Source: Vicinamibacteria bacterium
GTDB lineage: Bacteria > Acidobacteriota > Vicinamibacteria > Fen-336
Direction: 5' to 3'
Assembly (NCBI GenBank): GCA_041481445.1
Contig: JBGPBV010000016.1
Coordinates: 12,432 to 76,431 of the forward strand
DNA: 64,000 nt
Below are positions 9,341 to 64,000 of this stretch, piece by piece. Both the position numbers and the translations under genes were made by a program. Below the pieces are notes generated by a model that had not been told where the DNA came from, did not search any database, and saw nothing but the letters and a program-made list of their open reading frames with translations. Within the stretch, counting starts at the first letter, position 1, and each line of letters opens with the position of its first letter.

Positions 9341-11131
9341 ATGTCCGCTCCCCGGATGCGCTTTCGCCTGAAGGGGCAGGTCGACGACCTGCCCCGCACG
9401 TTCCTGCTGTTCGCGGACGGAGAGACGCGGGTCGGCAGCGCGCCCACCAACGACGTCGTCCTGCCGCAGGCCGGGGTGTCCCGCCGGCACGCCGTCCTCC
9501 GGGCCTGCGAGGGGGGCTTCGAGGTCACCGACCTCGAGAGCAAGAACGGCGTCCACGTCAACGGCGTGCGCACCGCCTCCGCGGTCCTGGCCGCCGGCGA
9601 CGAGGTACGCTTCGGATCCGTCTCGCTGGTCCTCGATCCGATCGACGAGGCCGACGTCGAGCTGGCGCTCGCCCTCGACGGTCGGGTCCCGGCGGCGCGG
9701 GCGCGTGAAGCGGCGGAGCGCGCCACCGAGACGTGGGCGGGCGCGGAGCCTGTGGACGCGCTCGCGGTCGTCGAGCACCTGCTGGGCCGGTTGCGCGGCG
9801 GTCCCGCCGCCCTGGGGGATGCGCTCACCCGCCTCGTCGAAGAGGCCGGCCTGCAGGGCTGCTGCATCGCCGAGGTCCAGGAAGGCTCGCCGGTCGTGGT
9901 CGCGGCCGCGGGCACGCTACAGGCGGTGGACGAGACGCGAGTGCTCGCCGCCGTGCAGGGCGCGGAGGGGCCGGACGCGACTTCCGGCGTGCTGGCCGGC
10001 GCTCCCGACCTCGTGTGGTCCGCGATGCCCGGCCATCCGCCCCGCGTCGCCCTCGCCTGGGGCGGTCGCCGCGCGGCTTCCCTGGAGCCGGTCCTCCGCA
10101 TCCTGGTGCAGGCCGCGGCCTGGCCGGAGGCGGCGCCCCGACGCAGACACGCGGCGCCGGAGCCTCCGCGCCCGCTCGTGTTCCCCACCCACTACGTCCG
10201 CGGGACGTCGCGTCCCATGATGGCGCTGTACGCCCTCATGGAGCCCATCGCCAACACCGGCCTGCCCGTCCTCCTCATCGGCGAGACGGGGGCGGGCAAG
10301 GAGGACGTGGCGCGCGCCCTGCACTTGTCGTCGGCGCGCGTGGGCGGCCCCTTCGTCCCCGTGAACTGCGCGGCCATCCCGTCCGAGCTCCTCGAGGCGG
10401 AGCTGTTCGGCGTCGGCAAGGGCGCGGCCACGGGGGTGGCGCCGCGGACGGGGCGCTTCCAGGCCGCCCACGGCGGTACGCTGTTCCTGGACGAGATCGG
10501 CGAGCTCGGCCTCCCCCTCCAGGCCAAGCTGCTGCGCGCGCTGGAGAGCGGCGAGGTGGAGCCGCTGGCCGCCGCCCCCGTGCGCGTCGACCTGCGCATC
10601 GTGGCCGCCACCAACGTCGACGTCGCGACGCGCATCGAGGCCGGCCAGTTCCGTGCCGACCTCTACTATCGCCTGAGCGGAGCCGTCCTGCGGATCCCAC
10701 CCCTGCGCGAGCGGCGGGGGGACATCCCCACCCTGATCGACGGGATCCTCCGCCCGCTCGCGGTCGCCTCCGGCAAGCCCGTCCGAGGCGTGACCGCCAA
10801 GGCCCTGGTCGCCCTCGTCGACTACGACTGGCCCGGCAACGTCCGCGAGCTGGTGCACGAGATGCACCGCCTGTTCCACGGCTGCCCGGCCGGGGAGGCC
10901 GTGGAATTCGGCATGCTCCGCGACGATATCCGGGCGGGACCCCGCGCCGCGCGGAGAGCGCCGGACGGAGGCTCCCTGGAGCTGCAGCCCCAGGTCGACG
11001 CCCTCGAGGGCCGCCTCATCCAGGAGGCGCTCGCGCGGAGCGGCGGCAACCGGACGGAGGCCGCGAAGCTGCTGGGCATCTCGCGCAACGGCCTCGCTCT
11101 CAAGATCACGCGGCTCGGGCTCGACGCCTGA
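9341..11131 (+). CDS. FHA-domain sigma-54-dependent transcriptional activator (bacterial enhancer-binding protein)
   Basis: N-terminal FHA domain (GSAPTNDVVL...VSRRHAVL...SKNGVHVNG). Central AAA+ sigma-54 interaction domain (GETGAGKE Walker A, GAFTGA-like GKGAATGV, DEIGEL). C-terminal Fis-type HTH. Confidence 0.85.
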   Translation: MSAPRMRFRLKGQVDDLPRTFLLFADGETRVGSAPTNDVVLPQAGVSRRHAVLRACEGGFEVTDLESKNGVHVNGVRTASAVLAAGDEVRFGSVSLVLDPIDEADVELALALDGRVPAARAREAAERATETWAGAEPVDALAVVEHLLGRLRGGPAALGDALTRLVEEAGLQGCCIAEVQEGSPVVVAAAGTLQAVDETRVLAAVQGAEGPDATSGVLAGAPDLVWSAMPGHPPRVALAWGGRRAASLEPVLRILVQAAAWPEAAPRRRHAAPEPPRPLVFPTHYVRGTSRPMMALYALMEPIANTGLPVLLIGETGAGKEDVARALHLSSARVGGPFVPVNCAAIPSELLEAELFGVGKGAATGVAPRTGRFQAAHGGTLFLDEIGELGLPLQAKLLRALESGEVEPLAAAPVRVDLRIVAATNVDVATRIEAGQFRADLYYRLSGAVLRIPPLRERRGDIPTLIDGILRPLAVASGKPVRGVTAKALVALVDYDWPGNVRELVHEMHRLFHGCPAGEAVEFGMLRDDIRAGPRAARRAPDGGSLELQPQVDALEGRLIQEALARSGGNRTEAAKLLGISRNGLALKITRLGLDA

Positions 11132-55399: not shown

Positions 55400-56670
55400 G
55401 TGTCAATAACGCGGCCTACGAGCTCTCCGTGGGACGCCGAAGGCTCGTTCGCTTTGGAGTCGGCCATCGACGAGCTCTCGTACGCGCTGGGCATCGATCC
55501 AATCGAGCTGCGAGTGAAGAATCACGCGCACGTGCATCCGGAGAGCGGCCTGCCGTGGTCGAGCAATGCGCTGATGGACTGCTATCGACGCGGTGCGGAA
55601 CGCTTCGGCTGGTCGGCGCGCAATCCAAAGCCTCGATCGATGAGGAACGGGGGGCAGCTCGTCGGATACGGCATGGCCCGAGCGGCATTGGTCGCGTACC
55701 AGCCCCCATGCAAAGCCATCGCATCCATACGGCGCGATGGAACGGCCTTCGTTCGCAGCGGCGCGACCGATATCGGGCCGGGCCCCCCCTACACCGTGAT
55801 GACGATGCTCGCGGCGGATTGCCTTGGCGTGCCGATCGAGCGTGTGCAGTTCGGTCTGGGTGATAGCCCGATGCCGAAGGCGCCGCAGGAAGGTGGGTCC
55901 GGACTGACGGGCGCACTCGGCAACGCCGTCCAGGCGGCCTGTGTCGATCTCGTCCGCGCATTCGTGAATCGCGTCCGCGACGACGAGGCGTCTCCCCTCG
56001 AGGGATGTCGATTGGAGGGCATCACCGTTCGGGACGGAGGCATCCAGATCACCGACGATCCCGCGCGCTTCGAAACATATGCCGCCATACTCACGCGGCA
56101 CGGTCTGGACGAGATCACCATTGAAGCAGAGAGCGCGCCGCCGGGTGAGACCTCGCCCGTCACGATGATCGCCCGCGCCGGTCGCTTCGTCCCCTTCACG
56201 GCGCCGTCGACGGGCGCCCGCGCGCACGCCGGGGGATATGCCGCGCACTTCGTCGAGGTCCACGTCGATCCGGATCTCGGAACGATCCGCGTGGCGCGCG
56301 TCGTGTCGGCGGTGGATGGAGGCCGGATTCTCAACCCGAAGACGTCCCGCAGTCAGATCACCGGGGGCATGGCCGGCGGAATCGGCATGGCACTGCTGGA
56401 GGAAACCGTATCGGACCGTACCGTCGTCTGGTGAACACGTCGCTGGCCGACTATGTCGTGGCGCTGAACGCGGACGTGCGGGATGTCGATGTGCTGTTCG
56501 TGGGACAACCCGATTCAATGACCCCCCTCGGAACAAAGGGGGTCGGGGAGCTCGCCATCGCCGGGATGGCGGCCGCAATCGCCAATGCGGTCTATCACGC
56601 GACGAGCACGCGGGTCCGCTCGTTGCCGCTCTCCATCGAGAAGGTGCTCGGACAGGAGTCCTCCCGTTGA
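55400..56670 (+). pseudogene. N-terminally truncated, frameshifted molybdopterin-binding subunit of a xanthine-dehydrogenase/CO-dehydrogenase-family oxidoreductase
   Basis: Only the C-terminal roughly 420 aa are present. A -1 frameshift at about 56425 (ACCGTCGTCTG where ACCGGTCGTCTG would restore ...SDRTGRLVNTSLADY...). Just upstream, about 16 codons resembling the start of a 2Fe-2S small subunit (VKTNIRVNNAAYEL) lie out of frame. Confidence 0.7.
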
Positions 56671-59787: not shown

Positions 59788-60468
59788 TCAGAACCTGTCG
59801 GCCTGGGGATCCCAGAACGTGTCCGTCAGGCCGATCCGCGCGAAGATCTGCCTGATCTCGCTCGCGTCAGGCCGATGCGCTTGGGGGCTCAGACGGTTCG
59901 AATACCACGCCATGGCCATCTGCCAGAGCTGTGGAAGCGTCGCCGTGGGGCGCCGCGGCTGTTGGAGCGCGGTGCACCAGTCGTTCAATGCCTCTTCCGA
60001 CCGGAAGAACAGCATCAGGCTTCAAGTGAACACGATGTCGTTCCACCATTTCGACGCGGGAACGACGCAGTGGAACCGCCATCCCGAAGACGGCGGCCCG
60101 TCCGGGGTCAGATGAAGGACAAGCGGTTCGAGTGTCTGCTCGCAACGGGAGAGAACGCTACCGGTCCCGCCCAGCGCGGCGACGACACCGAACGCGTCCC
60201 ACGCGCAGTTTGCGAAGTACTCCGCTGCGTTCACCGTCGCCCGATGCTGGGTGGGGACGCCGGAAAACGGCGGTGCCATCCGAATGGATGCGAAATCGCC
60301 AGCGGGCAAGAGCATTCGTTTGGCGTACAGCCGGCGATACCCGTCCCGGACTTGCTCGCTCGTGGCGCCGACCGCCTCGCGCATGGCATCCAGCGTTGGA
60401 GACTGACCCGTGGTCGCGAAATGCCGATACACGGCCGTCCGCAAGGTCACATCAAAGGTGTCGTCCAC
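59788..60468 (-). pseudogene. alkylmercury-lyase (MerB)-like gene disrupted into two ORFs
   Basis: ORF 60022..60468 matches MerB through ...NCAWDAFG...RFHCVV. ORF 59788..60015 in another frame continues MLFFRSEEALNDW.... About 36-40 non-homologous nucleotides lie between the two. Confidence 0.5.
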
Positions 60469-60725: not shown

Positions 60726-61457
60726 CTAGCCGGCCACGAGCTGCTGCCCGCCGTCGATGTCGTAGGTCGCGCCCGTGAGGGCGGTGTTGATCATGATGTG
60801 TACGGCGAGCGCGGCGACGTCGGCCGGTCCGACGACACGCCGGATGGGAAGCGTGGCGCGGAGCTGATTGCGGCGGTCTTCGAGCTGATCGCCGAGGAGC
60901 GATGCCGACAACGGTGTGTCCACGAAGCCGGCGGCGATGAGGTTGACTCGGACGGGTGCGAGCTCGAGCGCGAGGTTCTTCGTCAGGGCGGGAAGCGCGG
61001 CGGTGAGAGCCGAGATGAACGCGAGTCCCGCCGCCGGGCGGCGGCCACCGGTGCCGCCCATGAAGAGCAGGGTCCCTCCCGGACGAACCTTGCTCGCGGC
61101 GTTCCGGGCGACCTGCAGCGGCAGCAAGAGATGGGCGTCCACGTCCCGGCGTGCCGCTTCCACGTCGAACGCCGCCAGCGGCGCGTAGTAGGGACCGGGG
61201 CCCGTGACCAGCACGTGGTCGATCGGCCTGGGCAGCTCGTGGAAGAACCTCCCGAGCCGTTCGAAGTCGGTGGCGTCGAAGGCGGTGATGCGGGCCCCAA
61301 GCTCGAGGCCGGCGCGGTGCAGGCGATCCGGGTCGCGCGCGGTGAGGATCACGTCGGCTCCCTCGGCGCGGGCGCGCCGGGCCGTCTCGAGGCCGATGCC
61401 CGAGCTGCCGCCGATCACGACGACAGTCTGCCCGGCGAGCTCAGGCTTGCCGCTCAT
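60726..61457 (-). CDS. SDR-family oxidoreductase
   Basis: VVVIGGSSGIG Rossmann motif. C-terminal YDIDGGQ. Confidence 0.85.
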   Translation of the reverse strand: MSGKPELAGQTVVVIGGSSGIGLETARRARAEGADVILTARDPDRLHRAGLELGARITAFDATDFERLGRFFHELPRPIDHVLVTGPGPYYAPLAAFDVEAARRDVDAHLLLPLQVARNAASKVRPGGTLLFMGGTGGRRPAAGLAFISALTAALPALTKNLALELAPVRVNLIAAGFVDTPLSASLLGDQLEDRRNQLRATLPIRRVVGPADVAALAVHIMINTALTGATYDIDGGQQLVAG

Positions 61458-61589
61458 GGTCGTTCCTTTGCGCCCTCACTTGACCGGCACGGACCTCTTT
61501 CTGGTCGCACCACCATGGTGCAGGAACAGAGTAGAGCGCGCACCCATTCGCAGGCGTCCCACGATCGAGTGCTTGTGCGCTACGTCGGG

Positions 61590-61730
61590 CGCGAAGGCGG
61601 CGACATACACGAATCCCGCCACCTCTGCATCCTACCCGGCTTCGGTAATCACCGCACCGCCGTAGGAGTGGCCGACGAGGATCACCGGGCCGCTCACCGC
61701 GGTAGAGGGGGTGTGCGTTTCTCTTTGATC
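61590..61730 (-). pseudogene. fragment of an alpha/beta hydrolase paralogous to 24050..24841, with in-frame stop
   Basis: The DNA at 61600-61700 is about 80% identical to 24480-24580. It translates to GPVILVGHSYGGAVITEAG*DAEVAGFVYVAAFAPD with no flanking coding frame. Confidence 0.5.
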
Positions 61731-61778
61731 AATCGCGGGAGCTACGAACGCCGTGCTCGCCGCTCGGCCGCCGCTCCC

Positions 61779-62714
61779 TCAGCGCTCGGGGGCGTCGCGG
61801 GCGAGGGCCAGGACCGGGGCGCGCGGCAGCGCCGGTCTCGGCGTGACCGAGGGCGCGGGGGAAGCCGCGGGTGCCCTGGGGTCCAGGCGCGCCTGCCGCA
61901 CTCCCATCGCCACGAGCAGTCCGTTGAGGATCGCCTGCGGCCGCGGCGGGCACCCCGGAACGTAGACATCGACCGGGAGCACGTGGTCGACGCCTCCGAT
62001 GGAGGCATAGGTGCCTTCACCGAAGATCCCGCCACTGCATCCGCAGGCGCCCACGGCGACGACGACCCGCGGCTCCGGCGCCGCTTCGTAGGTCCTCACG
62101 AGCGCGATCTCCATGTTCCGCGTGACGGGGCCGGTGACGAGGAGGAGGTCCGCGTGCCGTGGGCTGGCCACGAAATGGATGCCAAAGCGTTCGAGGTCGA
62201 AGACCGGATTCGCGGTGGCCGTGATCTCGAGCTCGCAACCGTTGCAGCTCCCGGCGTCCACCTCGCGGACGTGAAGCGAGCGTCCCAGCAACCCATGGAT
62301 CCGCGCGCGGAGGCGAGCCGCGGACTCCCCGAGCCCGGGACCGGGTTGAACCTCCATGTGCGTGAACCGGGCGAGGCCCGTGCCGTCCACTTCGAACGAC
62401 GCGGTCTGCGTGAGCTGCTCGCGGGTGTAGGCGGCGACGTCGACGTCGTGTCCGGAGGCCACCACTTGCGGCGGACACGCGTCCACGCACTCACGGCACT
62501 GGATGCAGGCGGCATAGGACAGCGAGAGCTGCCGGCGGTCGGGGGCGGGCGCCTTGAGCTGGATGGCGCCCGTGGGGCAGGCGCGCGCGCACTGCTCGCA
62601 GGCGGTACAGCGGGCGAAATCGATCACGGGGAAACCGAACGGCGGCCTGGCTCGGAACGGGTCCGCCTTCGTCACCACTCCGGTCTTGAGGCTCTTCGAC
62701 AGGATGCGGAACAC
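61779..62714 (-). CDS. fusion of 2x[4Fe-4S] ferredoxin (HycF/NuoI-like) with hydrogenase-small-subunit/NuoB-like (HycG-like) domain
   Basis: A GGAGGAG RBS precedes the GTG at 62714. Ferredoxin clusters CTACEQCARACP and CIQCRECVDACP. Then GSCNGCELE, GACGCSGG and GCPPRP cluster motifs, nearly collinear with E. coli HycG. Confidence 0.8.
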   Translation of the reverse strand: MFRILSKSLKTGVVTKADPFRARPPFGFPVIDFARCTACEQCARACPTGAIQLKAPAPDRRQLSLSYAACIQCRECVDACPPQVVASGHDVDVAAYTREQLTQTASFEVDGTGLARFTHMEVQPGPGLGESAARLRARIHGLLGRSLHVREVDAGSCNGCELEITATANPVFDLERFGIHFVASPRHADLLLVTGPVTRNMEIALVRTYEAAPEPRVVVAVGACGCSGGIFGEGTYASIGGVDHVLPVDVYVPGCPPRPQAILNGLLVAMGVRQARLDPRAPAASPAPSVTPRPALPRAPVLALARDAPER

Positions 62715-62722
62715 GTCTCCTC

Positions 62723-64000
62723 CTAGAGGTCGTTGCCGGAATAGGACAGGTTGAAGCTCTTGTTGATCACCGGAAAGTCGGGAAGGATGTTGCCGGGCAC
62801 CGCGTGCGCGAGCCCCTGCCAGTTCTTGAAGCTCGGATCCGTCACCTTGACCCGGCGGAGGCGTCCCTCTCCATCCGTCTGGACCCAGTGCAGGCACTCG
62901 CCGCGCCAGCCTTCGGCCCAGCCGACGGCCGAGGAGGAAGGCGGCAGCGCGTCCGGCAACGGGCTCGACACCCCCCCCTCGGGCAGGTCCTCGAGCACGT
63001 GGCGGAGGATGTCCAGGGACTGCTCCACCTCGCGCGCGCGGATCATGAAGCGGGCGCGGACGTCTCCTCCCTCCTCGACGGGGACGACGAAGCGCAGCCC
63101 CGCGTAGGCGTCATGAGGCTGGTCGCGCCGGAGGTCGAGGTCGAGGCCGGACGCCCGCCCGGCCAGGCCGACGACGCCGAAGTCCCGGGCGACGTGCGTC
63201 GGCAGGATGCCCGTCCCGTCGACGCGGTCCGTGAAATTGCCGGAGTCGACGAGCAGCGTCACCAGATCGTCGAACTCGCGCTGCAGCCCCTCGAGCTCCA
63301 GCAGGATCTCGCGGCGGCGGCCGAGGGCGAGGTCGCACTTCACGCCCCCGAGGGCGACGGTGCCGCGCAGCGTGCGTGAGCCGAACAGGCGCTCCTGCAT
63401 GCTGACGAGCCCCTCGCGCAGGATCTGGGCGCGCGCGGCGGGAACCGTGAACGCCACGTCGGTGGCGATGCCGGCGATGTCGGCGACGTGGTTGTAGACG
63501 CGCTCGAGCTCGAGGAGGACGACGCGCAGGTGTCGTGCCCGCGGCGGCGGCTCGACTCCGGCGAGCCGCTCGATCGCGTGCGCAAAGGCCAGGGCGTGCC
63601 CGACGGCCGTGTCGCCGGAGATCGATTCCGCGAGGAAGAGGCCGTGCCGCCAGGGCAGTCGCTCGAAGCGCTTCTCCGTGCCCTTGTGCGTGTAGAACAG
63701 CCGGACCTGCAGGTAGAGGATCGGCTCGCCGGCGACGCCGAACCGGAAGTGACCGGGCTCGATGATGCCCGCGTGGACCGGTCCGACCGGGACATGGAAC
63801 ACGCCCTCTCCCGTCACCGGCCGATAGGGACGGGCCTGTCCCCCGACGCGCGGGACGACCTGGCGGTCGTCGAGATCCTTCCGGAGCGGCCAGACGTTCT
63901 CCGGCCAGTCGTCGTGAAGAGCCACACGGCTCCGGTTGGGATGGCCCTCGGGCACGAGGCCGAAGTAGTCCATGACCTCGCGCTCGAACCAATTGGCCAC
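62723..64000 (-). CDS. NuoC-NuoD-fused hydrogenase-large-subunit-like protein (HycE-like) lacking NiFe-ligand cysteines; 5' end outside window
   Basis: GPVHAGIIEPGHFRF and ELERVYNHV blocks as in HycE. The N-terminal RxCGxC site reads AESISGDTAV and the C-terminal DPCxxC reads NLSYSGNDL. The ORF is open to the window end. Confidence 0.85.
   Translation of the reverse strand: MANWFEREVMDYFGLVPEGHPNRSRVALHDDWPENVWPLRKDLDDRQVVPRVGGQARPYRPVTGEGVFHVPVGPVHAGIIEPGHFRFGVAGEPILYLQVRLFYTHKGTEKRFERLPWRHGLFLAESISGDTAVGHALAFAHAIERLAGVEPPPRARHLRVVLLELERVYNHVADIAGIATDVAFTVPAARAQILREGLVSMQERLFGSRTLRGTVALGGVKCDLALGRRREILLELEGLQREFDDLVTLLVDSGNFTDRVDGTGILPTHVARDFGVVGLAGRASGLDLDLRRDQPHDAYAGLRFVVPVEEGGDVRARFMIRAREVEQSLDILRHVLEDLPEGGVSSPLPDALPPSSSAVGWAEGWRGECLHWVQTDGEGRLRRVKVTDPSFKNWQGLAHAVPGNILPDFPVINKSFNLSYSGNDL

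Follow-up and report, generated by a model that had tools for sequence, protein, structure and literature searches.

Complexes of the energy-converting hydrogenase-related (Ehr) type are relatives of the group 4 hydrogenases in which the Ni-Fe ligands are absent; the class features used here are those given in papers citing Marreiros et al. (2013), the defining paper, and this literature calls the function of Ehr unknown. These complexes are very common, with reports from Mycobacterium tuberculosis, Geobacter and Nitrospira among others. They have also been reported from the Nitrospirales, where they are common, the Margulisbacteria and the Melainabacteria, and HydDB explicitly excludes them as non-H2-metabolising (PMC5037454). 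In G. sulfurreducens the ehr cluster (GSU0739-GSU0745) comprises seven genes, including those for EhrA-1 (NuoL-like), EhrC (HyfE-like), EhrL and EhrS, and under H2 or formate the proteome of Geobacter contains Ehr proteins in abundance (PMC7894505); the Rv0081-Rv0087 'hyc' locus of M. tuberculosis has been described as encoding an EHR-type complex and not a functional hydrogenase (PMC6728331). Here we examine a further locus of this kind at the end of a 64,000-nucleotide stretch of DNA from a Vicinamibacteria bacterium (assembly GCA_041481445.1, contig JBGPBV010000016.1, positions 12,432 to 76,431), hereafter the window, in which a sequence-only reading had proposed an Ehr-type module made up of a HycE-like large subunit and a HycF-HycG fusion. 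Ligand loss, operon subunits and gene count all fit that identification, the likeness to named reference Ehr complexes being one of description. On sequence comparison the locus displays every Ehr feature tested; Ehr is an already recognised class, and the locus is an ordinary additional member that adds nothing fundamentally new. We consider it probable that its two genes are the last of an Ehr operon encoding a redox-driven ion pump that acts on a substrate other than H2, possibly a quinone.

The observation that carries this assignment is the loss of the metal site. Columns were assigned by a HMMER pairwise alignment of the large subunit to HycE and by a MAFFT alignment of 154 sequences, which agreed on the same columns; residue numbers such as Ser128 refer to the large-subunit fragment encoded in the window. 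HycE RVCGICGF is aligned with ESISGDTAV and HycE DPCYSCTD with NLSYSGND, such that all four Ni-Fe cysteines (C241, C244, C531 and C534) are replaced, by Ser, Thr, Ser and Gly respectively, and neither alignment places a cysteine anywhere inside the two former ligand motifs (Table 1). Both alignments confirm the loss of the two cysteine pairs that had been proposed, and the RxCGxC and DPCxxC motifs are absent on a correct alignment. Furthermore, the large subunit ends two residues past the second motif and is without the C-terminal maturation peptide, where HycE and HyfG have 32 residues more. The large subunit is unable to bind the Ni-Fe cofactor, and is therefore not a hydrogenase.

Homology of this protein to the large subunits of group 4 membrane-bound [NiFe] hydrogenases is evident from its matches to HycE, MbhL and HyfG. 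Against all solved structures the top match was E. coli HycE (7z0s_E, E 4.5e-70), followed at lower rank by Thermus Nqo4 (2.4e-45), Pyrococcus MbhL (1.7e-41) and MbsL (2.8e-27), and identity to E. coli HyfG extends across 484 residues. In the copy of the PDB searched, in which no Ehr structure was found, HycE is the nearest chain, with 33% identity by BLASTP to a full-length relative of 91% identity. Pfam recognises the tail of Complex1_30kDa (NuoC-like, E 1.8e-12) followed by Complex1_49kDa (E 2e-43). The window end cuts the N-terminus, and the full length of 522 residues is recovered at L001:3341-4909, L001 being the contig extension of the window. A HycE-like NuoCD-type large subunit had thus been placed correctly, on the minus strand, and the two stretches quoted in its favour, GPVHAGIIEPGHFRF and ELERVYNHV, are both present in the protein as cited. 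The E-values obtained for the two gene products rule out a chance resemblance. A precedent for Ni-Fe loss accompanied by a new substrate exists in MBS, in which, as its structure paper reportedly holds, the proximal Fe-S cluster does the chemistry. P. furiosus MBS/Mbx (PDB 6U8Y) and MBH (6CFW) belong to the same superfamily; by the E-values given above they are far more distant than HycE, and their Mrp-type membrane module differs.

The surroundings of the former metal site are largely preserved. The second-sphere residues E193, H284, R395, E437 and R478 (HycE numbering) are all retained, each in 67-74 of the 75 cysteine-less representatives described below, and the pocket proton-path residues of the window protein are E81, H171, R282, E324 and R366; the proton pathway and canopy residues considered here are those named in the formate hydrogenlyase structure paper (PMC9474812). 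At the position of the proton-relay Glu81 a glutamate is found in 67 of the 75 cysteine-less representatives and in all 20 cysteine-bearing ones, while Asn417 stands at the position of canopy Asp529, with Asn in 62 of the 75. The pocket has also gained Asp130, which lies between the former cysteine positions of L1 (SGD) and is conserved in the family. Asp181 emerged from a comparison of the 75 cysteine-less with 20 tail-less cysteine-bearing representatives, in which, besides the ligand positions, only the columns of Asp181 and Pro389 switch cleanly: Asp181 is 93% conserved in the cysteine-less clade and is Gly in the cysteine-bearing sisters, Phe in HycE and Asp in NuoCD, and Pro389 corresponds to Ala in the sisters and to Pro in NuoCD. 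In a pairwise alignment, Asp181 falls opposite the Asp of GLLDLGA in Thermus Nqo4, which we take to be Asp139, the partner of the quinone-site His38. As judged from these alignments, the pocket matches neither the Ni-Fe site nor the canonical quinone site; it has kept a complete proton supply and gained carboxylates.

This arrangement is not peculiar to one genome. A scan of one genome per GTDB species confirmed 477 relatives, the best 80 of which were used for motif and locus work and are mostly Acidobacteriota (Vicinamibacteria at 72-86% identity, Terriglobia-type at 54-59%) and Verrucomicrobiota (55-60%), and more than 7,000 proteins match at E <= 1e-20 in a non-redundant collection of 5.8 billion sequences. 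The cysteine-less motifs, written ExxSGD and NLSY[SA]G, are conserved in hundreds of species. Among 81 related loci, which come from Acidobacteriota, Verrucomicrobiota and other phyla, all but one have the motif ES[IV]SGD[ST] (80 of 81), and SFNLSYSG[TN]D[RL] is almost invariant among the best 80 relatives. When the window fragment was compared exhaustively and without a profile against 1.84 billion representative proteins (50%-identity clusters), 1,030 clusters were returned at E <= 1e-30, and the five signature columns were readable in 131 of the best 150 of these. The Ser/Ala-Gly-Asp type of motif is carried by 75 of the 131 readable representatives and otherwise degenerate ligand columns by 34, while 22 keep all four cysteines, two of them HycE-type with a C-terminal tail and 20 tail-less, with ERxCGxC and [NE]LCY[SA]C. 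This tally identifies the tail-less cysteine-bearing enzymes as the closest kin of the cysteine-less family. The resolution of a neighbour-joining tree of 125 representatives was too low for the cysteine-loss events to be counted, and cluster look-ups for ten representatives returned metagenome names from Binatia, Thermodesulfovibrio and Ca. Wujingus, with no named reference Ehr among them.

The cysteine-bearing sisters reach 49% identity and share the operon layout A-H-E-F-L followed by a Fer4+NuoB fusion, the same beta1-beta2 loop (GP[VI]HAGIIEPGHFRF) and the lack of a C-terminal extension; they differ in keeping their ligand cysteines, in having no Asp between the L1 positions and in carrying Gly at the position of Asp181. 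Apart from the four metal ligands, only two or three residues of the pocket distinguish the two groups. One sister, a 'hydrogenase large subunit' of Candidatus Wujingus californicus (L091), lies in the same operon including the fusion, with no hyp genes within 10 kb, and has a PDDEXK_3 nuclease-family gene (L091:11644-12036) between the large subunit and the ferredoxin-NuoB fusion. Published trees put Ehr beside HydDB group 4f (PMC10284858), from which we infer that the cysteine-bearing sisters are probably group 4f [NiFe] hydrogenases.

In the product of the second gene of the locus, an N-terminal two-cluster ferredoxin domain of the HycF/NuoI type is joined by a linker to a HycG/NuoB-like domain, after which comes a non-conserved Pro/Ala-rich tail. 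Its GTG start (62714) lies 8 nt after the TAG of the large-subunit gene (62723-62725), and the overlap of this stop with the ribosome-binding site suggests that the two genes would be translationally coupled. The claim of a HycF-HycG fusion with its [4Fe-4S] ligands retained proved correct, as all of the iron-sulfur ligands are present in one 311-residue open reading frame (ORF). In the NuoB-like domain (Pfam Oxidored_q6, E 4.8e-34) the N2-like ligands Cys157, Cys160, Cys224 and Cys255 are invariant in 77 of 77 fusion proteins, and the motif, CNGC, is a hydrogenase-type CxxC as opposed to the tandem CC of complex I N2 (PMC9474812). One ORF covers both halves in 80 of 87 fusion-matching ORFs, and the HycF-HycG fusion, like the NuoC-NuoD fusion, is a trait of the family; it does not set this locus apart, because the cysteine-bearing sister has it in its operon as well.

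The ferredoxin half is less uniform. All eight of its cysteines are kept in the Vicinamibacteria-type subclade of the window, the sole subclade with Cys80; elsewhere Cys36 has become Trp in 65 of 77 relatives and Cys39 and Cys42 have become Ala in 63-64, so that the universal ferredoxin cysteines of the family are Cys46, Cys70, Cys73 and Cys76. By the standard wiring of 2x[4Fe-4S] ferredoxins, the relatives with Trp/Ala replacements, which comprise most Verrucomicrobiota and Terriglobia members (within L008-L082, e.g. L008, L013, L024 and L041), are predicted to have lost the motif-1 cluster. With the Thermus complex I structure in mind, we take the lost cluster to be the distal, N6a-equivalent one and the kept cluster to be the N6b equivalent beside N2. 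The family is on this wiring split into two-cluster and three-cluster electron wires; the window's subclade keeps both clusters of the HycF-like domain and most sampled relatives keep one. In M. tuberculosis the small subunit Rv0082 is presumably a separate first gene with no HycF-like domain.

Table 1. Features of the Ehr-type locus, with positions in the window and, for each subunit of the operon, the best E. coli match.
Feature	Position	Strand	Best E. coli match	Evidence or remark
EhrL-like large subunit	62723..64000	(-)	HyfG, 35%	ORF, Pfam, HycE alignment; C-terminal 425 of 522 aa
Glu81, beta1-beta2 loop GPVHAGIIEPGHFRF	63758..63760	(-)		equals HycE Glu193, proton-relay glutamate; retained
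AESISGDTAVGH in place of L1 motif RxCGxCxxxH	63596..63631	(-)		alignments
Ser128 and Thr131	63617-63619 and 63608-63610	(-)		at HycE Cys241 and Cys244 positions
Asp181	63458..63460	(-)		specificity-position scan; Nqo4 pairwise alignment
FNLSYSGNDL in place of L2 motif DPCxxCxxDR	62726..62755	(-)		alignments
Ser419 and Gly422		(-)		at HycE Cys531 and Cys534 positions
Gene junction	62715..62725	(-)		read from sequence; stop TAG overlapped by AGGAGGAG ribosome-binding site
EhrS-like fusion protein, 311 aa	61779..62714	(-)		ORF, Pfam, structure matches
Fusion, ferredoxin half			HycF, 24%	
Two CxxCxxCxxxCP motifs	62475..62609	(-)		Cys36/39/42/46 and Cys70/73/76/80; enough for two [4Fe-4S] clusters
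Fusion, NuoB-like half			HycG, 48%	
HycG/NuoB-like domain, proximal (N2-equivalent) [4Fe-4S] cluster	61863..62333	(-)		HycG 7z0s_G, E 1.6e-47
Two 678/679-aa antiporter-like subunits			HyfB, 37-38%	
NuoH-like subunit			HycD, 33%	
216-aa membrane protein			HyfE, 35%	across its C-terminal half
515-aa antiporter-like subunit			HyfF, 36%	
Alpha/beta-hydrolase remnant	about 61533-61694	(-)		Abhydrolase_6 positions 65-111 of 217, E 5.5e-8

The sequence-only reading had placed the rest of the operon beyond the window, and NuoH-like and NuoL-like membrane subunits were indeed found upstream. Contig JBGQKR010000013.1 (GCA_041499675.1, 76.6 kb) carries the exact fusion protein and is identical to the window over the last 2,000 window bases; it runs 3.6 kb past the window before it ends, and upstream of the large subunit it encodes a 515-residue antiporter-like protein, a 216-residue membrane protein and a 313-residue NuoH-like protein, one further gene being cut by the contig end. 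The full set is seen on a 410 kb contig from a relative with 91% identity (L083), where two antiporter-like proteins of 678/679 residues precede the NuoH-like protein, the 216-residue protein, the 515-residue antiporter-like protein, the large subunit and the fusion. Taken together, L001 and L083 give the seven-gene order A1-A2-H-E-F-L-FG, in which large subunit and fusion come last; the dominant order family-wide is A-H-E-F-L-FG. This operon link to NuoH-like and Mrp/NuoL-like antiporter subunits is itself a feature of Ehr, whose subunits are named EhrA to EhrD, EhrL and EhrS. With the Geobacter cluster the locus shares the seven-gene count and four subunit descriptions, namely those of a group-4-like large subunit that lacks the Ni-Fe ligands, of a small subunit and of one NuoL-like and one HyfE-like subunit, a likeness by description and not by sequence identity; that to the M. 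tuberculosis locus rests on literature description in the same way.

In terms of architecture, the complex is predicted to be built like E. coli hydrogenase 4, with a membrane part of HyfB-, HycD-, HyfE- and HyfF-like subunits, a large subunit of the NuoC-NuoD type and the fusion. A Hyf or Hyc protein is the best E. coli match of every subunit, both systems have a NuoC-NuoD fusion as their large subunit, the order B-C-(D)-E-F-G-H-I of Hyf (HyfA-J) is largely preserved, and the proton-relay residues are the same. The large subunit had been described as almost collinear with HycE, which stands; the membrane part is collinear with Hyf and not with Hyc. Unlike Hyf/Hyc (PDB 7Z0S), the operon has no Ni-Fe cysteines, maturation peptide, HyfA/HycB, FdhF, HycH/HyfJ, HycI or FocB; HycF and HycG are fused, the C-terminal Cys quartet of HycF is absent, and HyfB is duplicated, replacing HyfD. 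The residues expected of a pump are in place: the three antiporter-like subunits keep the Glu of transmembrane helix 5 (TM5), the Lys of TM7, the Glu of TM12 and the central His/His/Lys, and the NuoH-like subunit keeps R46, D63, K66, R148, E157, D213, E220, E228, K274 and R293 (NuoH numbering), ten charged residues common to NuoH and HycD; the one change specific to the family is E218 to His.

Partner genes were sought in the 64 kb window and within 10 kb in 86 loci. In these neighbourhoods hypA-E, hycI, hycH/hyfJ, focB, nuoA, nuoE, nuoJ and nuoK were not detected and fdhF gave no match at E <= 1e-3; a hycB/hyfA-like match occurs in 1 of the 86 loci, nuoF and nuoG matches occur in L050 alone, and no redox partner gene (FdhF, HycB/HyfA or NuoEFG) is conserved beside the operon. 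The predicted absence of hyp/hyc maturation genes nearby is therefore borne out, although missing hyp neighbours are weak evidence either way, because the cysteine-bearing sister operon has none nearby either. The label 'formate hydrogenlyase-like' survives as a statement of homology and fails in that there is no formate dehydrogenase or HycB partner; membership in the formate hydrogenlyases was rejected on these same matches.

Selection was assessed through the ratio of nonsynonymous to synonymous substitution rates (dN/dS) against five relatives, on true gene limits. The large subunit gave 0.11-0.24, the fusion 0.15-0.23 and the three membrane subunits tested 0.06-0.22, and all five subunits compared are under purifying selection. 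On account of the conserved motifs, the dN/dS range of 0.06-0.24 and the retention of proton-path and ion-pumping residues, we regard the complex as functional and not decayed. One publication views the Geobacter Ehr as a dead hydrogenase (PMC13194489), a view contradicted by these dN/dS values, by the intact coupled ORFs here and by the abundance of the Geobacter proteins (PMC7894505). Among 87 searched sequences, two genomes carry tandem copies of the operon (pattern E-F-L-FG-A1-H-E-F-L-FG). In one relative the HyfE-like gene continues as a 732-codon ORF without a Pfam match (L003:7570-9768, plus strand); the HyfE-like protein there has only 62% identity, where the other relatives compared have 85-96%, with a large subunit that is 84% identical, and the long ORF may be a frameshift or an assembly error in that metagenome-assembled genome.

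A chain of three [4Fe-4S] sites, the proton relay of the former pocket and the charged residues of the HycD-like channel and of the three antiporter-like subunits are all intact, and the redox-driven ion pump that we think probable might work as follows. As no dehydrogenase partner is encoded, we propose a soluble low-potential donor, most likely ferredoxin, that would give its electrons at the exposed HycF-like domain in a manner akin to Ech, MBH or photosynthetic NDH-1. The electrons would then run along two or three [4Fe-4S] clusters, the N2-like one among them, and a substrate in the remodelled pocket (ExxSGD, NLSYSG, Asp181), at the membrane interface, would be reduced with proton uptake. 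The most plausible substrate appears to be a membrane quinone, our preferred acceptor in view of the complex-I-like Asp and because most hosts have a respiratory lifestyle. The pocket reaction would drive H+ or Na+ translocation via the HycD-like and antiporter-like membrane arm, and the same machine may be able to run backwards.

A number of observations weigh against this scheme. The position of the complex I quinone Tyr is Ser or Gly, depending on the alignment, and that of the His is Ile. The genes neighbouring the operon, in the window and in the 86 loci, give no pointer to ferredoxin or to quinone. The distal cluster is lost in most members, and the electron entry route therefore differs within the family. 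Ehr-bearing Riflemargulisbacteria are reported to be without identifiable quinone biosynthesis pathways (PMC6349859), which argues against quinone as a universal acceptor, and the Ehr literature surveyed gives no biochemical characterisation of any Ehr. A bolder proposal is that the replacement pocket is a new catalytic or coupling site, and that Ehr would constitute an undescribed class of ferredoxin-dependent, ion-pumping oxidoreductases that reduce quinone or another non-H2 substrate. Such a site would combine Glu-x-x-Ser-Gly-Asp, Asn-Leu-Ser-Tyr-Ser-Gly, the complex-I-equivalent Asp and the hydrogenase proton relay, without the Tyr/His of complex I. We advance this tentatively and think it rather doubtful; were it true, group 4 hydrogenases and complex I would have a living intermediate in Ehr, a class widespread among the Acidobacteriota and Verrucomicrobiota of soil.

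Each of three alternative readings conflicts with a feature that was tested. The first, that the complex is truly a [NiFe] hydrogenase or a formate hydrogenlyase and evolves H2, perhaps by means of unconventional ligands, could be argued from the strong homology to HycE/HyfG, HycG, HycF and the membrane subunits of Hyf and the collinearity with them, from the public annotation of relatives as 'Ni,Fe-hydrogenase III large subunit' and from the existence of cysteine-bearing sisters with the same operon layout. All four cysteines are missing from the L1 and L2 motifs, which read ESISGDT and NLSYSG, the fdhF, hyp and hycI genes are not found nearby (with hycB-like in a single locus), the maturation peptide is missing, though the cysteine-bearing sisters are without one too, and HydDB leaves Ehr out; we regard this reading as extremely improbable. 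Just as improbable is a divergent respiratory complex I (NDH-1), as names of the PGAP style ('NADH-quinone oxidoreductase subunit C/B') would imply. There is a resemblance, in the L-shaped modular plan, the N6a/N6b/N2-type chain, the E-channel and antiporter residues, the absence of a Ni-Fe site and the Asp181 that matches the NuoCD/Nqo4 Asp, and Pfam and NCBIfam models for NuoC, NuoD, NuoB, NuoH and NuoL/M/N do match; but the NCBIfam NuoD score of 213.7 is far under the curated cut-off of 360, Hyf/Hyc is nearer than Nuo for every subunit, no NADH module (NuoE/F/G, the L050 matches excepted) and no separate NuoA, NuoJ or NuoK was found nearby, the quinone-site Tyr and His are absent, and the N2 motif is of the hydrogenase type. 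A decaying, non-functional relic of a hydrogenase operon would account for the lost catalytic metal site, for flanking DNA that holds fragments (the hydrolase and apparently truncated MoCoBD genes) and for the published description of Geobacter Ehr as non-functional (PMC13194489). We nonetheless find it very unlikely in view of intact ORFs with a coupled ribosome-binding site, low dN/dS in every subunit compared, replacement motifs that are highly conserved across phyla, the retention of all Fe-S ligands, proton-path and pump residues, and the abundant Geobacter proteins (PMC7894505).

Two further readings accept a working complex and differ in what it does. It could be a redox-independent Mrp-type cation/proton antiporter whose peripheral arm is structural, or is a redox or signal sensor gating transport, with no turnover in the pocket. 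Three antiporter-like subunits with intact pump residues, the lack of donor or acceptor partner genes at the loci, the regulators upstream of many loci (sigma-54 NtrC-type, ArsR, PTS-EIIA-like and receiver domains) and the loss of the distal Fe-S cluster in most of the family are all in keeping with this. The invariant N2-like ligands and the kept proton path are hard to explain without chemistry at the pocket, however, and the newly gained pocket residues Asp130 and Asp181 are conserved; we consider an antiporter of this sort unlikely. Complex-I-type machines are reversible, and the Nitrospirales, in which Ehr is common, need reduced ferredoxin for the reductive tricarboxylic acid cycle. The same machinery might be physiologically reversed, such that proton-motive force drives electrons from quinol to ferredoxin or another low-potential carrier, and the Geobacter proteomics paper speculates on reverse electron transport under H2 or formate (PMC7894505). 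There is no obvious need for this in soil heterotrophs of the Vicinamibacteria type, and a reversed machine meets the same uncertainty over the quinone site as the forward-running pump that we favour; we would give it only a small chance of being the physiological mode.

Public names such as 'Ni,Fe-hydrogenase III' and 'NADH-quinone oxidoreductase subunit C' mislead metabolic reconstructions, for example by inflating the H2-production potential attributed to soil Acidobacteria and Verrucomicrobia. While the locus alone makes the substrate question no more testable, the comparative results sharpen the targets for experiment.

The genes around the operon recur in part. Among the sampled loci a C4 zinc-ribbon protein is found in 20, a PTS-EIIA-type domain in 14, an ArsR-type regulator, directly upstream, in 14, and sigma-54 NtrC-type activators in 9-13; receiver-like domains also recur beside the operon, and in relatives the sigma-54 NtrC-type regulators lie directly upstream of it. 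We take Rv0081 of the M. tuberculosis locus to be of the ArsR type as well. The window itself encodes at 10202-10870 (plus strand) a sigma-54-dependent activator AAA+ domain 44-47% identical to E. coli FhlA and HyfR, for which no link to the operon is implied, as the two are some 50 kb apart. Synteny stops right after the fusion gene (window 60726-61778 compared with L083:12516-15200): the 91%-identical relatives have small ORFs and then a cupin / anti-sigma / ECF-sigma set, and the window has a hydrolase remnant, an SDR and a MerB-like gene. No promoter or terminator came out of a scan of the DNA downstream of the fusion gene. The adjoining decayed hydrolase fragment noted earlier is real, a partial Abhydrolase_6 match 85 nt 3' of the fusion gene that retains a GHSYGG nucleophile elbow and is interrupted by an in-frame TAG (61632-61634).

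The 55-62 kb stretch of the window appears rich in gene fragments, among them a split MoCoBD gene, the hydrolase remnant and a split MerB. Two adjacent short ORFs at 55400-56670 (plus strand), called as a MoCoBD_2 ORF of 325 residues and an ORF of 79 residues, have similarity to the C-terminal part of xanthine dehydrogenase / aldehyde oxidase and look like a truncated, split gene for a molybdenum-binding subunit. At 59788-60468 (minus strand) a gene of the MerB (alkylmercury lyase) family is split by a single in-frame TGA (60022-60024); when Cys is placed at the TGA, one Pfam MerB domain runs across it (E 1.8e-23, profile positions 1-125 of 126). The TGA lies about 61 residues past the C-A-W-D motif, which we take to be the position of the catalytic Cys159 in MerB numbering, and 8 nt 3' of it there is a hairpin with a GGUC apical loop (-17.5 kcal/mol, z -0.28, the energy not being significant). 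This TGA could encode selenocysteine instead of being a pseudogene stop, and MerB-related selenoproteins have been described (bioRxiv 10.1101/2022.07.06.499078).

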